Part shown: piece after piece, positions 5,439 to 31,011 of the stretch | How positions within the stretch are numbered: position 1 is the stretch's first letter | How the letters are laid out: each line of letters starts with the position of its first letter | Assembly: GCA_903902855.1 (NCBI GenBank) | Contig: CAIUWK010000068.1 | Location: forward strand, 74,558 to 138,557 | Direction: 5' to 3' | From: an uncultured Geobacter sp. | GTDB taxonomy: Bacteria > Desulfobacterota > Desulfuromonadia > Geobacterales > CAIOGM01 | DNA: 64,000 bases | Program-made: the position numbers and the translations under genes | Notes under the pieces: model-generated | The model's database searches: none | What the model was told of the DNA's origin: nothing | What the model saw: only the letters and a program-made list of their open reading frames with translations

Positions 5439-5513
5439 TGGTGATCCCAAGGGGACTTGAACCCCTGTTACCGACGTGAAAGGCCAGTGTCCTAACCGCT
5501 AGACGATGGGACC
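5439..5513 (-). tRNA. tRNA-Glu (anticodon UUC)
   Basis: Reverse complement GGTCCCATCGTCTAGCGGTTAGGACACTGGCCTTTCACGTCGGTAACAGGGGTTCAAGTCCCCTTGGGATCACCA. It has a cloverleaf, a CTTTCAC anticodon loop and an encoded CCA. Confidence 0.9.
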
Positions 5514-5583: not shown

Positions 5584-5658
5584 TGGCTGGGGTGCTAGGA
5601 TTCGAACCTAGGGATGATGGAGTCAGAGTCCATTGCCTTACCGCTTGGCTACACCCCA
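5584..5658 (-). tRNA. tRNA-Gln (anticodon CUG)
   Basis: Reverse complement TGGGGTGTAGCCAAGCGGTAAGGCAATGGACTCTGACTCCATCATCCCTAGGTTCGAATCCTAGCACCCCAGCCA. It closely parallels enterobacterial tRNA-Gln, with an encoded CCA. Confidence 0.9.
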
Positions 5659-11625: not shown

Positions 11626-12021
11626 TTATTTATTAGTCCGGGCTGTTATTTTACGATCCTCTTCGGTGACGTGGCATAACAGCCACCTGTAGAGAAAAAT
11701 GACAGTCTCTGGCGTAAGGTCAGCATTACTCTTCTTTCTATCACGAATCAACCTCAACACTTCATTAGTAAAATAAACGTGTTCGGCAATATGGTTATCG
11801 ATATCCTTGTATCCCACGGACTCCATATACTGCTGTTCCGCCTTAAAATGAAAATCAGCATAATCCATAAGTAAATCTAGGGTATAATACACATCAATCG
11901 TACTATGTTGAGAACTGAGGGTATCGTACAACCTGTTAAATATTTTAAACAGTTCTTTGTGTTGTAAATCTATTTCTTCGACTCCGATGGAATACTGATT
12001 TATCCAATCAAGTAACGGCAT
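11626..12021 (-). CDS. Bacteriohemerythrin
   Basis: Start taken at MPLLDW (Met23 of the 153-aa ORF). Iron ligand motifs are present: IDLQHKELF, FHFKAEQQ, HIAEH, WLLCHVTEEDRK. Confidence 0.8.
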   Translation of the reverse strand: MPLLDWINQYSIGVEEIDLQHKELFKIFNRLYDTLSSQHSTIDVYYTLDLLMDYADFHFKAEQQYMESVGYKDIDNHIAEHVYFTNEVLRLIRDRKKSNADLTPETVIFLYRWLLCHVTEEDRKITARTNK

Positions 12022-16851: not shown

Positions 16852-17928
16852 TTACCTGAAATTGTTACCCAGCCATTTTTTCCGCCGGAAATAGATCATC
16901 ATCCCCAGCGCCAACAGCGCCATGAGGACGAGGACCGCGGGGTATCCCCACTCCCACCCCAGCTCCGGCATATATTTGAAGTTCATCCCGTAGAGCCCGA
17001 CGATGAAAGTGAGGGGCATGAAGATAGTGGCGTACACCGTCAGCACCTTCATCACCTCGTTGGTCCGGTTGGCCTCGCTGGAGAGGTAGATGTCCAGCAT
17101 CCCCGAGAGCATCTCACGAGAAGTCTCCACCGTATCGATGATCTGCACGGTGTGATCGTAAAGATCCCGGAGGTAGACCAGAGTCCCCTCCCCCATGAGG
17201 TCGCAATCCCGGCGCTCCAGGCCGCCGATCAGTTCCCGCAAGGGCCAGACCGACCTCCGGATCAGGATCATCTCCTGTTTGAGACGATGAATCTTCCGGA
17301 TCGTCACCCTGGTGGGGGCCGCAACGACCTCTTCTTCCAACAGCTCCACCCGCTCGGCCAGCCGTTCCAGGACGAAGAAATAGTGGTCGACCACCGCGTC
17401 CAGCAGAGCATAGGCGAGATAGTCAGCCCCCTCCCCCCTCAGCCTCCCCTTGGCGGCACGGAGCCGCTCCCGCACCGGCTGGAAGGGGTCCCCATCCAGC
17501 CCCTCCTGAAAGGTGAGGAGCCACCCCTGCCCCAGAATCAGACTCACCTGCTCGGCGGCTATTCTCCCGTTGTCATCCATAGCCAACATCTTCACCACGA
17601 TGAAGAGGTAGTCGCCGTAATCCTCCTTCTTGGGGCGCTGGTCGGTATTGACGATATCTTCCATCACCAGAGGATGAAGTCCGTAACAATCGCCGATCCG
17701 TTTGAGGAGCTCTACCTGAGAGACCCCCTCCAGATTAAGCCAGGAGACCCCCTCCCCTCTGAGCAGCTCACAGGGATCAGCCGGTGCCAGGGTCTCCTCG
17801 GCAAAGGAGCGTTCATCGTAGGTGATGAGGGAGAGGACCGGTTCACGATGTGATGGCTCACCGATATGAACGAGGGTTCCGGGGGAAACCCCTCGCTTGT
17901 GCCGCCTGCTCTTGAGGAGACGCGCCAC
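16852..17928 (-). CDS. corA: Magnesium/cobalt transporter CorA
   Basis: 358 aa with YGMNF (GMN) motif and two C-terminal TM helices. GTG start. Confidence 0.9.
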   Translation of the reverse strand: MARLLKSRRHKRGVSPGTLVHIGEPSHREPVLSLITYDERSFAEETLAPADPCELLRGEGVSWLNLEGVSQVELLKRIGDCYGLHPLVMEDIVNTDQRPKKEDYGDYLFIVVKMLAMDDNGRIAAEQVSLILGQGWLLTFQEGLDGDPFQPVRERLRAAKGRLRGEGADYLAYALLDAVVDHYFFVLERLAERVELLEEEVVAAPTRVTIRKIHRLKQEMILIRRSVWPLRELIGGLERRDCDLMGEGTLVYLRDLYDHTVQIIDTVETSREMLSGMLDIYLSSEANRTNEVMKVLTVYATIFMPLTFIVGLYGMNFKYMPELGWEWGYPAVLVLMALLALGMMIYFRRKKWLGNNFR

Positions 17929-17931
17929 CTG

Positions 17932-18033
17932 CTACGACCTGGCCGACCGGGGGGCGATCCCGGCAATGAAGCCCTGAAAGCGGGCTCCATCCCTCCCCGC
18001 GGTTAGGGAATAATAGACGATCAGTACTTCCAT
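17932..18033 (-). CDS. 33-codon upstream ORF abutting corA (leader peptide candidate or in-frame N-terminal relic)
   Basis: GGGGAGG - 6 nt - ATG; MEVLIVYYSLTAGRDGARFQGFIAGIAPRSARS*. Its TAG stop lies 3 nt before the corA GTG, in the same frame. Confidence 0.3.
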   Translation of the reverse strand: MEVLIVYYSLTAGRDGARFQGFIAGIAPRSARS

Positions 18034-18228
18034 GAAAAACCTCCCCGAGAATCTCGACTGCTCCCTGATGCCGCTCCTATCCGGGCGATTGATCCTGAAC
18101 CACTTACCGGATACTCTTCTCCCGGCAAAAAATCAACAGCAAACCTTCGCTCATTTTCTTCATTCTTGGGACTTTTCGCATCATCCTTCGCAATTCTCCT
18201 GTAGCAGAGAACCTTCTCCTAGAGTATA

Positions 18229-18981
18229 ATGATAAAGTTAAAATTTAGACAACCATCTCCAAGGAGTATCCCTACAGTGCCTACCTGCGCTTTCATGATC
18301 ATGTTATTGCTCACCATCACCACTCCTCTCCCGGCCATGTCTGCAGTGGATAAGCCGTTACAAACCCGGACAGAACGACAGAATCCGGTCCCGGGGGAAT
18401 CGGCTCAAACGGTACCGGAGATGAGAGGCACGGAGAAAACGGCGGTCAAGCCGAAGCCCGGCAGCAATGACAGAGTCTCTCCCCGTGAACCATCAAACTC
18501 CCTGATAGTCAACTTATCTCTTTTTTTGGTCATGGGGATTGCCGCGCTCTTACTGGTAAGAGCCGTTATCCGGGCGGTCCGATTCATGTCAATGAGTGGT
18601 CTCACGAAGATGCGACATGAAAAATTCAACGTCCTCTCCCCCCTGGTGATCCGCTCTCTGGAAAACATGGCAACGCCCCTATGGGGCGAGAATCACGCCT
18701 GGTTGCGAAAGTATCATATCAAGAAAAAACGGGATCGCTGGATACTCTGCGATCGCAAGCGTGACGGATTCATTCGCTCCCAATCGGAAAAAAACAGTGT
18801 GGAAATAAGCCTGAGGGATACCAATTTCAGAGTCAACATCATCCTCCTCAATGGAATGAGGAAAAATATGATCATGGAGTGTCGCGATTTTTCCGAAAGC
18901 GAACTTGTAACCTCCCTGGAAAAGGTTAAATCAGTTATCATGATCACGCCGAACAGTACGTCGCAACAAAAGGGTCCATGA
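18229..18981 (+). CDS. Hypothetical membrane/secreted protein
   Basis: 250 aa. N-terminal hydrophobic segment and one internal TM helix (LSLFLVMGIAALLLV). ATGA overlap with the downstream REC ORF. AT-richer than its surroundings. No family recognised. Confidence 0.35.
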   Translation: MIKLKFRQPSPRSIPTVPTCAFMIMLLLTITTPLPAMSAVDKPLQTRTERQNPVPGESAQTVPEMRGTEKTAVKPKPGSNDRVSPREPSNSLIVNLSLFLVMGIAALLLVRAVIRAVRFMSMSGLTKMRHEKFNVLSPLVIRSLENMATPLWGENHAWLRKYHIKKKRDRWILCDRKRDGFIRSQSEKNSVEISLRDTNFRVNIILLNGMRKNMIMECRDFSESELVTSLEKVKSVIMITPNSTSQQKGP

Positions 18982-19891
18982 CATCACGAGATGGCTTGAA
19001 TCACCATAATCACTGCGTGGGAAAAAAGCTCCTCATCGTCGATGATGAACCGACCAGCATCAGGGTCCTGGCCGAGACACTCCCCCCCTACTACCAACTC
19101 TTCTCCGCCACTTCAGGACAAGAGGCTCTGAAGCTTGCCGCCCGAATTCAGCCAGACCTGATCCTGCTGGATATCCGGATGCCGGACATGGACGGGTACG
19201 AGCTCTTCCGGGCCATGCAGGCCGACCAATTCCTTCGGACAATCCCGATTATCTTCGTCACGGCCCTCACCGGCGAAGAAGACGAGAGCATCGGACTCGC
19301 CCTGGGTGCAGTGGACTATATCACCAAACCCTTCCGACCGGCCATTGTCAGGCAACGGATAAGCAACTATCTGGAGCTCAAACAGCGGCGCGACGAACAA
19401 CTTTCCCGGGTGGAGGAGTCGTTACGGGAGAGTGAGGAACGGTTTCGCCTCTTCTCGGCCATTTCGAGTTGGCAGACCAGGCCACCCTCTTTCTGGACGA
19501 AATCGACGAACTTCCCCTGGAAGCCCAGGCAAAACTGCTGCGGATTCTCCAGGAGGGTGAGTTTTGCCGGGTCGGCAGCCCCAGGACCATCAAGACCGAA
19601 ACGCGCATCATTGCGGCCACTAACCGGAACCTGTCCGAGGAGGTGCAGCAGGGACGGTTCCGCGAAGACCTCTACTACCGGTTGAGCGGTTTTCCGCTGA
19701 CTATCCCCCCCCCCTGCGGGACCGATCCGAAGATATCCCGCTGCGGGAGTGGCGGCTCTTTGACCTTGCAGGAAGTGGAATCCCAGCACATCATCCAGGT
19801 TCTGCGCTCCACCAACTGGCGCGTGGATGGCCCCAAAGGTGCAGCCCGTTTGCTGGGACTCAATCCCAATACCCTGCATTCCCGCATGTGA
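18978..19891 (+). pseudogene. Decayed sigma-54-dependent response regulator (REC intact; AAA+ and HTH fragmented)
   Basis: REC domain (LLIVDDEP...LILLDIRMPDMDG...DYITKP), then EERFRLF. The frame then switches to [57 protein letters not shown]. The Walker A half is missing. There is a second frame change at a C10 run (19705-19714; alternative frame reads [13 protein letters not shown]), an internal deletion before [10 protein letters not shown], and a TGA where KKLGI is expected. Confidence 0.7.
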
Positions 19892-20211
19892 AAACTGAGG
19901 ATTCATTCTCCATGAAAAATATTTCAATTATCGGTTATTCTTTTATATTAAAAAGTTATCACCCTCACCACCTGCCCCCCACTGAGCTATACCACCATAA
20001 TTACAGCCACCTACAGGGATCATTCTCCGAACAAAACGTTGGCACGATTAATGTAATCGCAACAACATGAGGGTGGAGAGTTCACCGGAGAAGGGGAGCA
20101 CGTCACCGTCAGTATGCCCCTGACGCACGAAGAGAATTCCCCATGACACAGATCGGAAGGACTCCGTCTCCCTTGACAGGAGAATCTTTCGTTGCAAGGA
20201 GAAACAGCGAC

Positions 20212-21381
20212 ATGAACACCCCCTATTGTGCCGGATTACCGGAGCTTCCCACGGTCTCAGCCGACGCCGTAAAACTGTTTCATCGTGCGATAACGAGTGT
20301 GACGGCGCAAGTGGCCGCCCATCTTGAGAGCCGGCCTGATCTGGACATGTTCACCGGCGGTAATTCGCCGGATCTGCTCCGCGGCATGCTGCGACACCAG
20401 GCGAGGTTCATGCTGATCATCTTCACCGTGGACTCCCCCCAGCAGATTGCATCGTTTCTCCTCTGGAACCATCAGACATCCCAGGCTCAGGGGTTCTCCT
20501 CAGAGTTCTTTGCCCTGCTGCTTGACGCCTGGCGAACCGTCGTCCGTGACCGGTTCACCACCCATGGAGAGGGAGGTGAGCTCCCGTCATTCTATGACTG
20601 GCTGGCTCGATGCCACGAAACAAGCAGCGTTTCCCCCGGTGAAGGGATATATCCTGCTGTTTCCCTCACGCATAATGTCAAGGGGGTGCAACTCCCCTTT
20701 CTCTGGCTGCTGCTGCAAGGAAATTTCAGCAGCTGCCTGCAGTTCAGCAGTTCGTTGATTGAAACCTTGGATGACCTGAGACAGTTTTACCTGAAAGTAA
20801 TCTGGCCTGTATTCTACCGGATAGGTGAGCTCTGGAGTTCCGGCCTGATCTCCGTCGCCGAAGAGCACTTGGCCACGAATCTGGTCAAACGGGTCATGCC
20901 GGTCCTCCTTTCCCGGTTCACCATGAACAGGGTGACTCGTGGAAAGGCCTTGGTTTCCACATCCCCCAATGAGCACCATGAGATCGGCGCCAGGATGGTC
21001 GCCGATTTTTTGGAACTGGATGGCTGGGACGTCATCTACCTGGGGGCCAATATTCCTTCCTGGGCACTTCTTGACATGGTCCAGCGAGAGAAACCTTTCC
21101 TCATCGCCCTCTCCGCTGCCACCGAGATAAACCTCGGCAATATCAGGTACATTATCGACATGATCAGGGGTGACCGACGGCTTCGAGAGACAAAAATCAT
21201 GGTTGGCGGTTACGCGTTCTGTCATAGCTGGCTGCATTGGCAGCAGATCGGCGCCGATGGCCATGCTCCCGATGCCCAGGGGGGCGCCCTGATCGCAGCG
21301 GAGTGGTGGTCGGCGCGGCAGGGTGACAAATCACAGGATGAAAGTAACCACTCAGGTTTGAGACTGAAGGCTGAAGGTTAA
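20212..21381 (+). CDS. Cobalamin (B12)-binding domain protein, CarH-like sensor module without a DNA-binding domain
   Basis: AAGGAG precedes the ATG at 20212 (the ORF opens at 20143). Four-helix cap motif W-x9-EH (ELWSSGLISVAEEHLAT) and Rossmann B12 motif ExHxxG (NEHHEIGARMV...GWDVIYLG). The N-terminal ~200 aa are unassigned. Confidence 0.75.
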   Translation: MNTPYCAGLPELPTVSADAVKLFHRAITSVTAQVAAHLESRPDLDMFTGGNSPDLLRGMLRHQARFMLIIFTVDSPQQIASFLLWNHQTSQAQGFSSEFFALLLDAWRTVVRDRFTTHGEGGELPSFYDWLARCHETSSVSPGEGIYPAVSLTHNVKGVQLPFLWLLLQGNFSSCLQFSSSLIETLDDLRQFYLKVIWPVFYRIGELWSSGLISVAEEHLATNLVKRVMPVLLSRFTMNRVTRGKALVSTSPNEHHEIGARMVADFLELDGWDVIYLGANIPSWALLDMVQREKPFLIALSAATEINLGNIRYIIDMIRGDRRLRETKIMVGGYAFCHSWLHWQQIGADGHAPDAQGGALIAAEWWSARQGDKSQDESNHSGLRLKAEG

Positions 21382-21403
21382 ACCCGTCAACCTGAGTAGT
21401 TAC
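21344..21403. repeat. Heptamer-arm hairpin element, short copy E (inverted relative to copies A-D)
   Basis: GTAACCACTCAGGTT..GACTGAAGGCTGAAGGTTAAACCCGTC..AACCTGAGTAGTTAC, with terminal inverted repeats. It overlaps the last 12 codons and the stop of the B12-binding gene. Confidence 0.75.
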
Positions 21404-21446
21404 AATATCTCTTTCATAAGGTGGAGAGGAGTCGGAGGGTAACAGG

Positions 21447-27352: not shown

Positions 27353-27680
27353 ACTAGACCCCCCAGGAACATGAATTTTTTGTCCTGCGCAAGTAATCGA
27401 AGACTAGTCGCACATTCCAGATAGGGGAGATGGTGATAAGTGACTTCTGTTGTCGGCGCTAATTCAGGGAGCGGGTGTGGTGATTTTTTGTCGGGTTGTC
27501 TGTACGTGTTGACCACCGATGCCGATGGCCGGTTTACCTTGCCGACTATGGATTTTCTGGATGCTTTCGTACAGATCAAAGCGGCAGATGGTAAGGACTT
27601 TGCGACGGTCAACCTGCCGATTAAGATGTTTGAAACGGGGGAACTGGCGGTAGTGCTGCAGCCAAGGCAGTAGGGTTTTA

Positions 27681-28097
27681 CTACACGAACCCCAACTCAA
27701 TCCGTTTGCCGAACACCCGGGCAATCTTTTCGAGGGTCTTAACGGTAGGATTAGCTTTGCGTGGATTTTCCAGGCGTTGATAGACCTGATAGGAGATGTT
27801 GAGCTGTCGTGCCACTTCGGTCTGCGGTCGATCGGCACGCAGGGTGCGCAACATCATGGCAACAGCGATATGCGGAGCTACGGGGATATTGTATGTGTTT
27901 TTACTTAGAATGGCAGAAGGAGATGGAATGACGAAATTTCGTTCAAAATCGGATTCGATACAACCGTTCAGCGCCTCTTCGGCATTATGCAGAGCCTCTT
28001 CCAATGTAGCTCCATAGGTCATGACGTTCTCTAAGTCGGGAAAACTGGCCAGATAGCCGTCGTCCTGTTTTTCTATAAGCACCGGATATGCCAGCAT
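27681..28097 (-). CDS. hicB: HicB family antitoxin with C-terminal HTH
   Basis: 138 aa. N-terminal HicB fold pattern (YPVLIEKQDDGYLASFPDL...GATLEEALHNAEEAL) and C-terminal XRE-like HTH (QTEVARQLNISYQVYQRLE). Confidence 0.85.
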   Translation of the reverse strand: MLAYPVLIEKQDDGYLASFPDLENVMTYGATLEEALHNAEEALNGCIESDFERNFVIPSPSAILSKNTYNIPVAPHIAVAMMLRTLRADRPQTEVARQLNISYQVYQRLENPRKANPTVKTLEKIARVFGKRIELGFV

Positions 28098-28102
28098 AAT
28101 TA

Positions 28103-28288
28103 TTACTCCTTTATTCCCGCTTGTTTAAGAATGCCGTGAACAAGTCCTTTGGGCAGATCTGTTGTGCCGTGTGTCGGAATGGGAACCGAGCGGCACCCCT
28201 CGCGGATCATGATGTGATGGCTGCCGGAGATACGATCAAGCACCCAGCCATGTTCCTCAAGAATCTTTTTGAGCTGTTTGCCGGTCAT
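28103..28288 (-). CDS. hicA: HicA family mRNA interferase toxin
   Basis: Start taken at MTGKQLKKILEEHGW (Met16 of the ORF). GSHHIM...PIPTHG..DLPKGLVHGILKQAGI is typical of HicA. Lies 5 nt upstream of hicB. Confidence 0.85.
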   Translation of the reverse strand: MTGKQLKKILEEHGWVLDRISGSHHIMIREGCRSVPIPTHGTTDLPKGLVHGILKQAGIKE

Positions 28289-28532
28289 GAAATAATTTAT
28301 ACAGCATAAATGATGTGTGTCAAGAAATACCATTGACCACTTGGAGGAATTGATCCGCTGGCTGATACCAAGGTGACTGCTTACAGGGGTGGAGGGTCAG
28401 GCTTGGACGGACCGTCCAAGATTGCGCGTTGCAGAATGTGGCGAGACAGGAAGGGCTTGAAAGAAATGGGGGATTGGGGACGGGTTAAAATGGTGACGGT
28501 CTGGATGTTCCAGTAAGTGAATATGTGAACTA

Positions 28533-28582
28533 CGTCCCGTCCGCCCCGTCCGCCCCGCGTCCCGTCCGCCCCGTCCGCCCGC
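28533..28582. repeat. C-rich tandem array (CCGTCCGCC-like units)
   Basis: CGTCCCGTCCGCCCCGTCCGCCCCGCGTCCCGTCCGCCCCGTCCGCCCGC. Confidence 0.7.
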
Positions 28583-28670
28583 AGTCCAGCTAAAACCGCA
28601 CTTCATTAGTTTTTTTGATATAAAAATAGTGTTTTATTTTGGCCTAAAATGTTATTTTTCAGCAAGTTGA

Positions 28671-29057
28671 ATGCCCGTTTCGGCATGCCGAAATGAGTAC
28701 AAAAAAGTGCTGACGGCTCTATTGTCTGAATGTGAAACGCCGGCTCTCACTGACACCGGTGCCCACCCTACCCTTCACGGCCACATACTCTACCTCGGGT
28801 TCCTGACATTGATTGGGCATAAGCTTGACAATACCGATGCTTCAATAATCGGCGTGAACCGCACCTACAAGGATCTGGTCACCGGTGAGCAGTTGACGAT
28901 AAAGGAGAGTTTCATCGAAAGTCTGACTCATGACAGCTATGTGATCCAGATTCCGAGTCTGGCTAGCAGGAAACACACCTGTTTACCCCTTCGAGTCGAC
29001 GGTAGAGTGTTCTGCCGGGATTCTTCACTGAAAGGAGTGTATAGGGTTATTTGGTGA
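28671..29057 (+). CDS. Hypothetical protein (weak call)
   Basis: 128-aa ORF with no recognisable SD. The start codon sits beside the TTTCGGCATGCCGAAA palindrome, and the 3' end overlaps the convergent RES gene by 11 nt. No family recognised. Confidence 0.25.
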   Translation: MPVSACRNEYKKVLTALLSECETPALTDTGAHPTLHGHILYLGFLTLIGHKLDNTDASIIGVNRTYKDLVTGEQLTIKESFIESLTHDSYVIQIPSLASRKHTCLPLRVDGRVFCRDSSLKGVYRVIW

Positions 29058-29772
29058 GGGATATTTTTTGTGGCGAGCAGTAAATGTTTTGCAGGAGAAC
29101 ACCTCGCTCCCGTTCAACCCTCAGTGCGCCATTGGCCAGAGGATTGAAAATATATGTAAGAAAGCAATGGTCTCTGGCATCACTTAACCTCGATTGTTTG
29201 AAAATCGCCCCGTTGGTTCCGCTACATCGTGCCGACCTGTACATGACTCCGTTCTGTCCTTGCCGTTGAAGATAACTACCAAGAGCATTGGAAAACGTGT
29301 AGTCGTCGGGGTCTACCAGAGCGTGATACTCAATCTCCTTGCCAAGCAGTGAAACAAGGATGCCGTGACACTTCGCTTTGATCACGCGGCGTTCCGCCAC
29401 TATGTCTGTTGATTCATTCGGGAACGAAGCGAGGACGAAACGACGCCAGTGATAAGCGGATTCATGGATGGTCGTTTCAAGGTCCAGCGAGCCGTACCAA
29501 ACACCATAGCGAATGCCGTCACTAAACCGGGTCCGCTGCCAGTTCGCTTCTATAAAAGGAAATGCGATGGCGGCGCCATAATCAAAGGGCCTTGAGAGCA
29601 GGCTTTCTTCGGTCGCCACGCTGTCCCGGTTCTCGGCTGCGTGAGCAATGGCGTAATCGTCTCCGTCGTCTCCCAGGTCATCAAACAGATCCTGAGAAAT
29701 GCGGAGGCCTTTGATGTTACGTAACAAGTATTCGTCAAAATCAACGATGTCCGTGAGTAGTTTCGAGTACAT
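29047..29772 (-). CDS. RES-domain toxin (NAD+-targeting, MbcT/ParT-like family)
   Basis: 241 aa. R..E..S signature context (RFSDG..YGVWYGS...TTIHE...GVMYRSARC). Lies directly downstream of its Xre-like partner. Confidence 0.85.
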   Translation of the reverse strand: MYSKLLTDIVDFDEYLLRNIKGLRISQDLFDDLGDDGDDYAIAHAAENRDSVATEESLLSRPFDYGAAIAFPFIEANWQRTRFSDGIRYGVWYGSLDLETTIHESAYHWRRFVLASFPNESTDIVAERRVIKAKCHGILVSLLGKEIEYHALVDPDDYTFSNALGSYLQRQGQNGVMYRSARCSGTNGAIFKQSRLSDARDHCFLTYIFNPLANGALRVERERGVLLQNIYCSPQKISLTK

Positions 29773-30180
29773 CTATCGGTCACATTCGAAATCAAGATAG
29801 CGTCTGATCGCCAACAATCCTTCATACCCGCTCCGCATGATCTCCAAGGGGGGCTTGCCGGTAAAAGTCGCGTTGGGCGCAGTGACCCACGTATAAACTA
29901 GATCCCGATTATGGGGGAACATGATGCGAAGAGCCTTGTGGATGCCCAACAGGTGACCGACTCTGCCGATGAGGTCGACGCTGTTTTCCAGGGGAGAACC
30001 TTTCCGATAGCGAGTCAACGTCATGCGGGAGGTGGGAGCGAGGCCAAGCAAGGCACACTGGTCCGACTTTGAGAGTCCCCAATGGTCAAAAAGTCGGGCA
30101 ATCATCTTGGCGAGGCTTTCTCGTGAGGCTTTGGAGCCAAGGTCAACAAGGTGGTTTTCTTGAGCCGCGGCGGCGAGCAT
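29773..30180 (-). CDS. Xre/MbcA/ParS-like antitoxin (DUF2384-type toxin-binding domain)
   Basis: 135 aa. C-terminal W...PN..F.GK.PLE......G...L..YL pattern (YTWVTAPNATFTGKPPLEIMRSGYEGLLAIRRYL). Adjoins the RES gene with no gap. Confidence 0.85.
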   Translation of the reverse strand: MLAAAAQENHLVDLGSKASRESLAKMIARLFDHWGLSKSDQCALLGLAPTSRMTLTRYRKGSPLENSVDLIGRVGHLLGIHKALRIMFPHNRDLVYTWVTAPNATFTGKPPLEIMRSGYEGLLAIRRYLDFECDR

Positions 30181-30326
30181 GGATATCTCTCCTGAACAAT
30201 ATTTTTTGTTGCATAAATAGTATCAAAAGATATACAGATGGGCAAGGGGAAACTTCATTGTCCGTAAATCGCACAGATTGACATTGATATAAACTTTGCA
30301 CGTGAGCTGTCTACAGAGGACACCGC

Positions 30327-30470
30327 AACATTCTGGTAACCGGTCCCACTGGCGCCGGCAAGTTACCTTGCCGGCGCTCTGGTCCAGAAAGCCTGTCGAC
30401 CGGCAGATCCACCAGGAAGTCGGTGAGTTCTTCTCTTCGGGTCATGAGGTAGGCTGATGCCACACTTCGC
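30327..30470 (+). pseudogene. IstB-like (IS21 helper) P-loop ATPase fragment, frameshifted
   Basis: Own translation NILVTGPTGAGK, then after a shift YLAGALVQKACR. This is a Walker A region only, colliding with the truncated integrase on the opposite strand. Confidence 0.4.
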
Positions 30471-30995
30471 CAGCACCTGGTCGAACTGCTCCTTCAAACG
30501 TGGCGTCATTCCCCTGAATCCCCAGAGAACATACTCCGACTTGATCTGCTTGGGCCACCGGCTGAGCGGTCCATAGAGGTCGTCTCCGATGGGGATAACC
30601 CGCAAACGACCACGCTCCCGATTCCCCGCCACGATGACCTTCCTGTCGAGGTCCACGCTATCCCAGGTCAGCCTGAATATCTCGCCGAGCCGCATGCCGG
30701 TGTTCAGTGACATCCTGACGAGCATTTGAAGCTGGGGATGAACGGAACACGCATCAACGAGGTCCAGCCATTCCGTGATTTGCAGGTAGCGGAGATTCTC
30801 GTGACGTGGCCGAAGCATCTCGGCAAGTCCCACCATTGAACTGACCGCCACACTCACCAGTTCCCACCGCTCGCACATACTATATATATGCTTCAGGACG
30901 TCCACGTGGTGGTCGCAGGTCTGGGGAGAGACGATGGCAAGGGCTTTCACCTGATACTCCTCGATGTCGGCAAGGTCGATGCCGTCGAGGTTCAT
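30455..30995 (-). pseudogene. Tyrosine recombinase (phage integrase family) fragment
   Basis: MNLDGIDLADIEEYQ...LVRMSLNTGMRLGEIFRLTWDSVDLDRKVI covers the core-binding region and first catalytic Arg box. The HxxR and Tyr boxes are absent. The listed 300-aa ORF extends N-terminally only by reading through the G-rich repeat array. Confidence 0.6.
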
Positions 30996-31011
30996 CTTGC
31001 CGAAGTGGGCA

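Follow-up and report, generated by a model that had tools for sequence, protein, structure and literature searches.

What does a small cobalamin-binding protein sense, and to which partner does it report, when its gene lies between a sigma-54-type response regulator and a membrane histidine kinase? The question is raised by a 389-amino-acid (aa) protein encoded in a 64,000-nucleotide (nt) stretch of DNA from an uncultured Geobacter sp. (contig CAIUWK010000068.1), hereafter the window, in which an original prediction made from the sequence had seen a CarH-type photoreceptor module beside a CHASE-PAS kinase. We favor, with a probability of roughly 0.5, the reading that the gene product is a free-standing soluble sensor of the photoglobin-B12 ("photocobilin-like") kind that would use adenosylcobalamin (AdoCbl) photochemistry and signal by touching other proteins, at this locus probably the two-component pair encoded beside it. 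We refer to the gene as the B12-globin gene; its coordinates and those of the surrounding features are collected in Table 1.

Pfam searches placed two cobalamin-binding domains in the C-terminal half of the protein, both above the cut-offs: B12-binding_2 at residues 166 to 232 (E=6.5e-10, 39.5 bits against a cut-off of 23) and B12-binding at residues 244 to 355 (E=7.7e-20, 71.4 bits against 32.1). Neither Pfam nor NCBIfam detected a helix-turn-helix or other DNA-binding domain in the 389-aa protein, as the original prediction had held. Within the four-helix bundle, WSSGLISVAEEH carries W208 (20833 to 20835) and E218-H219 (20863 to 20868) in a W-x9-EH arrangement; together with the motif G205-x-x-W208, the bundle thus holds the W208/E218/H219 triad that forms the adenosyl pocket of AdoCbl photoreceptors. 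The Rossmann domain contains EHHEIG, with E254 and H256 (20971 to 20979) and a predicted lower axial ligand in His256 (20977 to 20979), and a loop, G278-A-N-I-P282, at 21043 to 21057. In a family alignment of 63 full-length homologues, 30 to 47% identical to the window protein, residues G205, W208, E218, H219, N253, E254, H256, G259, and G278 were invariant and P282 was nearly so; the CarH-type motifs W-x9-EH and E-x-H-x-x-G that had been read from the single sequence are therefore borne out across the family. The published light-response signature from SignatureFinder is GxxW/EH/GxxH/GxxxP (PMC11796333), of which GxxW (G205..W208), EH, and GxxxP (G278..P282) are present and the Gly of GxxH is replaced by the invariant Asn253. 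Residue 209, directly after the Trp, is Ser in the window protein, Glu in the family consensus, and Gln in SasPcob, and the CarH-type His is absent from this position. In TtCarH, it is His132, beside the Trp, that gives the bis-His light state. The C-terminal tail exceeds that of most homologues in length and varies among strains at residues 379, 387, and 389.

One reading of such a module is that it belongs to a corrinoid methyl-carrier of a methyltransferase system. The two share a cap-plus-Rossmann architecture, many homologues bear the JGI name "methanogenic corrinoid protein MtbC1," and NCBIfam returned partial matches to MtgC, MtbC, and MtaC that fell far below the cut-offs (MtgC_2, 54.7 bits against 370); the best partial match in NCBIfam, however, was CarH. 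When the family profile was compared with sequences of the PDB, the top photoreceptors were SasPcob (5e-37), CtMerR (1.2e-23), and AbPcob (2.1e-23). Corrinoid carriers were also good matches (1y80, 3.5e-23; 4jgi, 1.8e-20), and weaker ones were obtained for CarH (about 3e-12), methylamine corrinoid proteins (1e-11 to 1e-15), methionine synthase (about 1e-10), and AerR (2.8e-3). Alignment of individual residues set one carrier apart: the family shares W...EH with SasPcob, CtMerR, and AbPcob, and the equivalent residues in 1y80, a corrinoid protein of Moorella, are F...EV. Moreover, the protein carries an extra globin domain (see below), and no methyltransferase was found at the window locus or among the 54 downstream neighbors of the family described below (0/54). 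The carrier reading is highly improbable and is effectively refuted by the genomic context and the W...EH triad. We conclude that the C-terminal half is supported, by its sequence, as a cobalamin domain of the sensor (CarH/photocobilin) type rather than the methyl-carrier type, because photocobilins and CtMerR head the profile matches and the W...EH motif is shared with them.

The N-terminal part had been left unassigned in the original prediction, as about 200 aa that were not a MerR domain. It is indeed not a MerR domain, but it is shorter (about 140 to 155 aa) and is assignable by structure. Sequence and profile searches of this domain against Pfam, NCBIfam, and the PDB gave no significant match, and a weak, sub-threshold match to the C-terminal domain of SasPcob recurred across searches. 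An AlphaFold2 (AF2) model of the full-length protein built on the family alignment had a mean predicted local distance difference test score (pLDDT) of 89.2 and a predicted template modeling score (pTM) of 0.83. In a Foldseek comparison of the whole chain, matches to the B12 domain prevailed and the N terminus remained uninformed, and for that reason residues 1 to 150 were modeled alone (pLDDT, 87.1), giving six helices; in the N-terminal domain, helices span residues 17 to 39, 44 to 48, 53 to 70/73, 76 to 92, 99 to 117, and 123 to 139. The top 50 Foldseek matches of this model in the PDB were nearly all globins, with template modeling (TM) scores of 0.54 to 0.62. They included heme globins, sensor globins (Geobacter GCS 2w31, TM 0.56; DosC, 0.60 to 0.62), allophycocyanins (0.57 to 0.58 with root mean square deviations of 3.4 to 3.6 Å), SMURFP with bound biliverdin (0.59), and, among photocobilins, SasPcob (query-normalized TM, 0.54 to 0.55). 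Every E-value was above 0.05, so the fold is assigned from the agreement among these matches and from their TM scores. With good confidence in the modeled fold, we assign the N-terminal domain to the globins.

What kind of globin it may be was addressed by excising the C-terminal photoglobin domain of SasPcob (P0121) and its relatives and comparing its profile with that of the N-terminal globin. With two query profiles, hhalign aligned 100 collinear columns at P=0.013 and P=0.009, and column-shuffled controls reached the score in 1 of 30 and 0 of 60 cases. The alignment pairs Trp296 of SasPcob with W85 (20464 to 20466), which is Trp in 57 of the 63 family members and in the window protein, within a common motif W-x7-(A/S)RG-φ-(S/P). 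In SasPcob, Trp296 stacks on the D ring of the bilin (PMC10979010). As a positive control, the C-terminal half of the heme oxygenases encoded beside some relatives (P0006 type, below) matched the photoglobin profile at P=1e-4; a transitive link of the N-terminal globin to photoglobins through that heme oxygenase domain was tried and was not significant (P=0.07 to 0.31). An exhaustive search of 1.84 billion representatives with the N-terminal profile recovered 589 proteins or clusters, almost all of about 365 to 375 aa with the domain at the N terminus and the same architecture, and none bridged to the classical photoglobins. The sole listed protein with a globin of this type elsewhere in the chain was P0480 (529 aa, domain at residues 162 to 301). 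On the sequence comparison, we regard the N-terminal globin as probably a divergent photoglobin, and the window protein therefore most likely belongs to the photoglobin-B12 class.

The signaling partners of the family were examined by scanning genomes, with each species represented once, which yielded at least 440 relatives, of which the best 80 loci were analyzed. These came from Desulfuromonadales, Geobacteraceae, Smithella, Syntrophomonadaceae, Halanaerobium, Nitrospirota, Atribacterota, Thermotogae, Elusimicrobia, Spirochaetes, and others. With a simple open reading frame (ORF) call, 54 of them had a co-directional gene no more than 120 nt downstream, mostly overlapping the sensor stop codon by 4 to 38 nt. 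An N-terminal PAS-like domain followed by a coiled coil was common to 50 of these 54 partners, of which 24 continue into GGDEF, 19 into a Cys-rich tail, and one (L063) into a hybrid kinase. The Cys-rich tail is conserved as PICxxCKxIR...W...HGICPxC and has no match in Pfam or NCBIfam. The L063 partner, a PAS-PAS-HK-REC-Hpt hybrid kinase, is 46% identical over its first 160 residues to a small partner. Stand-alone photocobilins are known to regulate a diguanylate cyclase in trans (PMC10979010), and the GGDEF-type partners and the lack of methyltransferases among the 54 neighbors fit control of that kind. We conclude that the PAS-coiled-coil partner likely marks a docking surface of the B12-globin family. 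As separate observations, partners of about 220 aa with the PAS-coiled-coil-Cys-tail layout occur in many phyla (L006:9070-9741, L014:9065-9763, L015:8966-9628, L041:9056-9721), with a tail that reads in full PICxxCKxIRxD...W...E.Y...HS...FSHGICPxC, and the B12-globin gene of L063 (7989 to 9081, a Desulfuromonadales metagenome-assembled genome [MAG]) is split into two adjacent ORFs of 149 and 213 aa, possibly by a frameshift or an assembly error.

By analogy with SasPcob, AbPcob, and CarH, the following mechanism may be proposed. In the dark, His256 would ligate the cobalt of AdoCbl from below, and W208, E218, and H219 would cradle the 5′-deoxyadenosyl group across a head-to-tail dimer. Green light would break the Co-C bond, and the ensuing conformational or oligomeric change would be relayed by protein-protein contact to a signaling enzyme. 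For most family members the target would be the translationally coupled PAS-coiled-coil protein, whose C-terminal part is GGDEF, a Cys-rich tail, or a kinase. In the species studied here, the module is set between a sigma-54 response regulator and the CHASE-PAS kinase, in a slot occupied by hemerythrin in relatives, and would probably act as an accessory input to that pair. Assignment to the class is well supported; cofactor binding, light response, and kinase contact are what we infer from these analogies.

The nearest relatives of the window protein, at only 42 to 47% identity, are embedded in histidine-kinase operons and are without the PAS-coiled-coil partner. In the P0006 group (22 contigs), a multi-PAS kinase is followed by a REC-kinase with a 4-nt overlap, the B12-globin gene, and a 428-aa heme oxygenase; in P0002, CheB-CheR-PAS kinases flank the gene on both sides; and in P0007, an upstream kinase gene overlaps it. 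Heme oxygenase is encoded beside the relatives L004, L014, and L019 and on the P0006 contigs. Proteins of 428 to 432 aa with an N-terminal heme oxygenase and a photoglobin-like C-terminal half are encoded beside B12-globin genes of Desulfuromonadales at L004:9164-10450, L014:6614-7912, and L084:9215-10501, and the occurrence of heme oxygenase in presumed anaerobes is notable.

At the window locus, the B12-globin gene is preceded by a ribosome-binding site (RBS), AAGGAG, at 20196 to 20201, 10 nt 5′ of the ATG at 20212, and gene calls on six to eight contigs, which come from several samples, gave an identical protein beginning at this ATG. A longer start at ATG 20143 was rejected on the N termini of homologues, the gene calls on the other contigs, and the RBS. 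The position 65 nt ahead of a co-directional CHASE-PAS kinase of 1,045 aa, as originally described, was confirmed. No terminator-like hairpin was found in the 65-nt spacer, and because the spacer is short and lacks such a hairpin, the two genes are, as far as sequence can tell, likely co-transcribed. Upstream, a sigma-54-like −24 element with a poor −12 (TGGCACG-N4-ATGTA, 20040 to 20055, two mismatches to the consensus) was considered as a promoter and set aside as a weak lead, since 25 such matches were found and 25 were expected in shuffled sequence. Rfam searches of the window found no cobalamin riboswitch or other RNA besides two distant tRNA genes (5442 to 5513 and 5587 to 5658, both on the minus strand).

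The regulator upstream had been described as decayed, and its reading frames are indeed split, with REC in 18978 to 19685 and the C-terminal half of AAA+ plus HTH_8 in 19469 to 19891; the decay, however, is specific to the strain. A sister strain (L090; 98.8 to 99.5% nt identity) has an intact 737-aa regulator (L090:7490-9703) ahead of the B12-globin gene and thus the full regulator-sensor-kinase unit. Relative to it, the window strain has lost 1,081 nt at a junction at 19454/19455 (aa about 160 to 520, including Walker A, with a frameshift) and about 180 nt at a junction near 19744 (aa about 616 to 677) at a short direct repeat (CCNCTGCGGG). Since the sister strain is intact and the window strain carries the deletions, we conclude that the species has a regulator-B12-globin-kinase unit that is broken in the window strain.

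The intact arrangement in the sister strain also bears on a different target: the protein could act, in a B12-dependent manner, as an AerR-like co-regulator of the sigma-54 regulator, through its PAS domains or its AAA+ ring, rather than on the kinase. Besides the direct succession of the two genes there, this is favored by the PAS-like domain with which the usual family partners begin and by the weak profile match to AerR (7te2). Yet the partner-domain hidden Markov model matched the PAS domains of the regulator only generically and without significance, the gap to the regulator is 297 to 320 nt while that to the kinase is 65 to 79 nt, and the locus has no CrtJ/PpsR-type context. We consider this target improbable and retain the two-component pair, with the kinase as its nearer member. 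A link between the B12-globin protein and the kinase is plausible.

Several observations weigh against a photocobilin-like input to that pair. In the globin, no HMMER link to photoglobins was obtained, which leaves the sequence assignment marginal. Low-confidence hhalign columns pair Asp270 of SasPcob with column 59, where 43 of the 63 members have Asn and the window protein has Met; AbPcob, a validated photocobilin, likewise lacks the biliverdin-binding Asp and has His there (PMC10979010). His63 is conserved in 62 of 63 members and is replaced, only in the window protein, by Gln (20398 to 20400), with His62 beside it. Tyr87 has likewise become His only in the window protein (20470 to 20472), which deviates further at R88, Y90, L78, T82, N59, and H60. 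Neither a heme oxygenase nor a second globin or photoglobin was found in the window, and the PAS-like partner domain was absent from all six of its frames; the window kinase and the intact regulator scored 1.6 to 4.6 bits against that domain, at the level of generic PAS similarity. Many family hosts come, by their record titles, from dark habitats, and such members sit oddly with a purely light-sensing role. All three orthologues of the kinase carry a different small gene upstream, and the B12-globin gene of the window has diverged from that of L090 with 7 non-synonymous and 4 synonymous changes, a ratio of non-synonymous to synonymous rates (dN/dS) of 0.54. Titles that indicate lightless sites belong to MAGs L013 (DeMMO6 deep mine), L030 (Tomsk deep aquifer), L065 (anaerobic membrane bioreactor), and L029 (tar biofilm).

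The three kinase orthologues (71, 59, and 58% identity) were compared with the window locus. The small gene directly upstream encodes a hemerythrin in each (L088:5578-5985, L089:5519-5920, and the P0257 contig), 15 to 80 nt from the kinase, sometimes with one or two more hemerythrins downstream; the co-occurrence with the kinase that the original prediction proposed checking is thus not conserved. A convergent Cu-ATPase lies downstream in two of the orthologue loci, and L088 also shares the upstream CorA and 238-aa genes, the latter syntenic with the 234-aa gene at 18277 to 18981. Nucleotide matches between the window and L088 cover 16924 to 17992 and 18579 to 18898 and resume at 21427, 20 nt 5′ of the kinase ATG, to run to 27035. 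In the interval, L088 has a PAS-HK-REC-REC hybrid kinase and the hemerythrin. Because the orthologous kinases carry a hemerythrin upstream and the window segment replaces the L088 genes, we conclude that the pairing of B12-globin and CHASE-PAS kinase is derived, either as a swap of sensors or as a by-product of rearrangement. The orthologue loci adjoin Cu-ATPase, FixH, FixG, and cbb3-oxidase genes, which suggests an oxygen-related circuit. A stand-alone hemerythrin gene is also present in the window about 9 kb upstream (11626 to 12021, minus strand), adjoining a CN-hydrolase gene and a large multi-PAS kinase.

This exact occupation of the hemerythrin slot, beside cbb3-oxidase assembly genes in the orthologous loci, suggests a sensor that is not photic: the cobalamin domain, together with a globin pocket that is lined by His and may bind heme or some other tetrapyrrole, would report cobalamin status, redox, or oxygen, and the protein would have replaced hemerythrin as the accessory sensor of the kinase. 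The family spreads across strict anaerobes, including MAGs titled deep mine, deep aquifer, digesters, and sediments; heme oxygenase, an O2-dependent source of biliverdin, adjoins few loci only; the pocket has the near-invariant His63 and frequently a His at column 60 in place of the photocobilin Asp; and heme sensor globins are among the Foldseek neighbors. On the other hand, strict conservation falls on the residues by which known photoreceptors grip the photolabile adenosyl group. Moreover, the family has no invariant proximal His of the heme-sensor type on the F-equivalent fourth helix: at column 91, 37 of 63 members have His and the window protein has Gln, and His63 lies on the third helix. 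The habitats, too, are known from record titles only, and the samples of the window lineage look by name like lake water-column metagenomes, in which dim light is plausible. We regard a non-photic role as a serious rival, although rather unlikely.

The derived pairing would also fit an accidental neighbor, a gene that rearrangement brought beside the kinase, that is functionally unconnected with it, and that is now less constrained and being lost. The replacement of the segment from about 18.9 to 21.43 kb relative to L088, the raised dN/dS, the loss of family-invariant globin residues from the window protein alone, the absence of the canonical partner gene, the deletion of the regulator, and the mobile-element genes just past the ATPase all lean that way. 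Compared with L090, six neighboring genes together have 12 non-synonymous and 51 synonymous changes and dN/dS values of 0.00 to 0.16 (Fisher P=0.005), although the substitution counts are small. Against loss, all seven cluster variants, which stem from several samples, keep an intact ORF and are without amino acid change in residues 201 to 378, the core B12 domain, and all B12 motifs are preserved. Tight spacing and an RBS fit an operon, and adjacency to kinases recurs in the nearest clade of the gene. We consider an accidental neighbor a serious rival but unlikely, and keep to a photocobilin-like sensor whose B12 core is conserved and whose globin pocket is drifting or re-tuned. Given the two regulator deletions and the diverged pocket, the pathway is probably crippled in the window strain.

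Base composition and gene content change around the replaced segment. At 18001 to 20000, a stretch that takes in the start of the segment without homology to L088, G+C is 0.525, compared with 0.58 to 0.61 on the flanks, as would be compatible with foreign or rearranged DNA. Past the Cu-ATPase, at about 27400 to 31000, are a HicB-like gene (27681 to 28097), RES (about 29047 to 29772), an Xre-type antitoxin (about 29773 to 30180), and an integrase (about 30363 to 30995). This toxin-antitoxin and phage-type integrase zone sits where L088 and L089 carry FixH, FixG, and cbb3-oxidase genes; a mobile element may have inserted there, or the zone may mark the breakpoint of a rearrangement.

Table 1. 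Coordinates of the B12-globin gene, its predicted domains, and its neighbors in the window
Feature	Position	Strand	Basis or remark
234-aa gene	18277..18981	+	ORF extendable to 18229; stop overlaps regulator start
Segment without nucleotide homology to L088	18899..21426		Regulator remnant and B12-globin gene
Pseudogene of REC-PAS-PAS-sigma54 AAA+-HTH_8 regulator	18978..19891	+	Pfam and sister-strain comparison
AT-rich intergenic region, 320 nt	19892..20211	+	5′ of B12-globin gene
B12-globin sensor gene, 389 aa	20212..21381	+	ORF/gene calls, Pfam, 63-sequence alignment, AF2; predicted N-terminal globin fold, then CarH/photocobilin-type cobalamin-binding module
Predicted globin-fold (photoglobin-like) domain, residues 1-140	20212..20631	+	AF2 and Foldseek
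Interdomain linker, residues 141-155	20632..20676	+	pLDDT 58 block
Four-helix bundle, B12-binding_2, residues 156-234	20677..20913	+
Rossmann B12-binding domain, residues 245-352	20944..21267	+
Long C-terminal helix, residues 355-387	21274..21372	+
Spacer, B12-globin to kinase, 65 nt	21382..21446	+	Kinase RBS GGAGG at 21434-21438
CHASE-PAS-PAS-PAS-HisKA-HATPase_c membrane histidine kinase, 1,045 aa	21447..24584	+
Cu-type P-type ATPase, 809 aa	24608..27037	−	Convergent; synteny anchor with loci of kinase orthologues

If the protein works as proposed, B12 light sensing would extend to two-component control in Desulfuromonadales-like anaerobes, and to a domain order opposite to that of the two photocobilins characterized so far. 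The locus amounts to a natural experiment, as the same kinase has a hemerythrin for its neighbor in three relatives but a B12-globin in the window, and the idea of a swappable sensor that acts in trans is directly testable at the CHASE-PAS kinase. For the family as a whole, the PAS-coiled-coil partner with its GGDEF or Cys tail offers an in vitro diguanylate cyclase assay, and the annotation of many homologues as "methanogenic corrinoid protein MtbC1" or "MerR family regulator" is mislabeling. A broader proposal is doubtful and we put it forward as speculation: small soluble cofactor proteins might be swappable inputs of one CHASE-PAS kinase, and the N-terminal-globin/B12 family a distinct sensor type that works beyond or besides light, for example on oxygen or redox through a non-bilin tetrapyrrole coupled to cobalamin. 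The claim in the original prediction that such a module feeding a two-component pathway was not a described circuit was too strong, because the photoglobin-B12 class and its association with two-component operons had been published (PMC8717448, PMC10979010, PMC10151467). Three results are new here: a B12-globin has taken the place of hemerythrin at an orthologous kinase, a PAS-coiled-coil partner recurs throughout the family, and the window copy shows evidence of relaxed constraint.

Among known systems, the protein resembles CarH, LitR, and CtMerR (5C8A, 3WHP, 8JBS) in its four-helix bundle and Rossmann domain, W-x9-EH, lower axial His, and GxxW/EH/GxxxP elements, and differs in lacking the MerR DNA-binding domain and in the Asn that replaces the Gly of GxxH; from CarH in particular it is set apart by Ser209 (Glu in the family) in place of His132 and by a much lower profile score. 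Like AerR/PpaA (7TE2), it would be a stand-alone B12-binding regulator that has no DNA-binding domain and acts by protein-protein contact, but the profile match is marginal, the context includes neither photosynthesis genes nor CrtJ/PpsR, and a globin is present. The hemerythrins upstream of the orthologous kinases are, like it, small soluble proteins with a predicted cofactor in the identical genomic slot; fold and cofactor are unrelated (di-iron in one case, cobalamin plus globin in the other), and the accessory-sensor role of those hemerythrins is likewise presumed.

The closest parallels are the photoglobins and photocobilins. The photoglobin-B12 class was described computationally in 2021 and linked to two-component operons, with none of the loci experimentally studied (Schneider et al., PMC8717448); photoglobins are fused before or after B12-binding_2 and B12-binding (PMC8717448) and are sisters of the biliverdin-binding BBAG-2 globins (Rockwell et al. 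2023, PMC10151467). As in those proteins, a putatively non-heme globin is fused here to B12-binding_2 and B12-binding, the distribution is wide among non-phototrophs (PMC8717448, PMC10151467), and the operons abound in genes for PAS, GGDEF, histidine kinase, REC, and heme oxygenase proteins (PMC8717448). The conserved Asp/Leu pattern of photoglobins (D49/L80) is not evident in this family, and its PAS-coiled-coil partner with the Cys-rich tail is not described in the parts of the photoglobin literature consulted (PMC8717448, PMC10151467). The photocobilins SasPcob and AbPcob were characterized in 2024 (Zhang et al., PMC10979010; PDB 8J2W/8J2X/8J2Y), and photocobilin groups have the B12 domain either N- or C-terminal (PMC10979010). 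The present family differs from SasPcob and AbPcob in placing the globin first, in a globin relationship that reaches only P of about 0.01 with no HMMER link, and in its hosts, which are anaerobes rather than actinobacteria; where SasPcob has Asp270, the family has Asn (Met in the window protein) and offers the family-invariant His63 instead. It agrees with both in combining W-x9-EH and ExH with a globin-fold second domain and no DNA-binding domain, and the B12 module finds its best match in SasPcob. Like the photocobilins, finally, the protein stands alone and could act in trans, and many partners in its family are diguanylate cyclases, as for AbDPcob.

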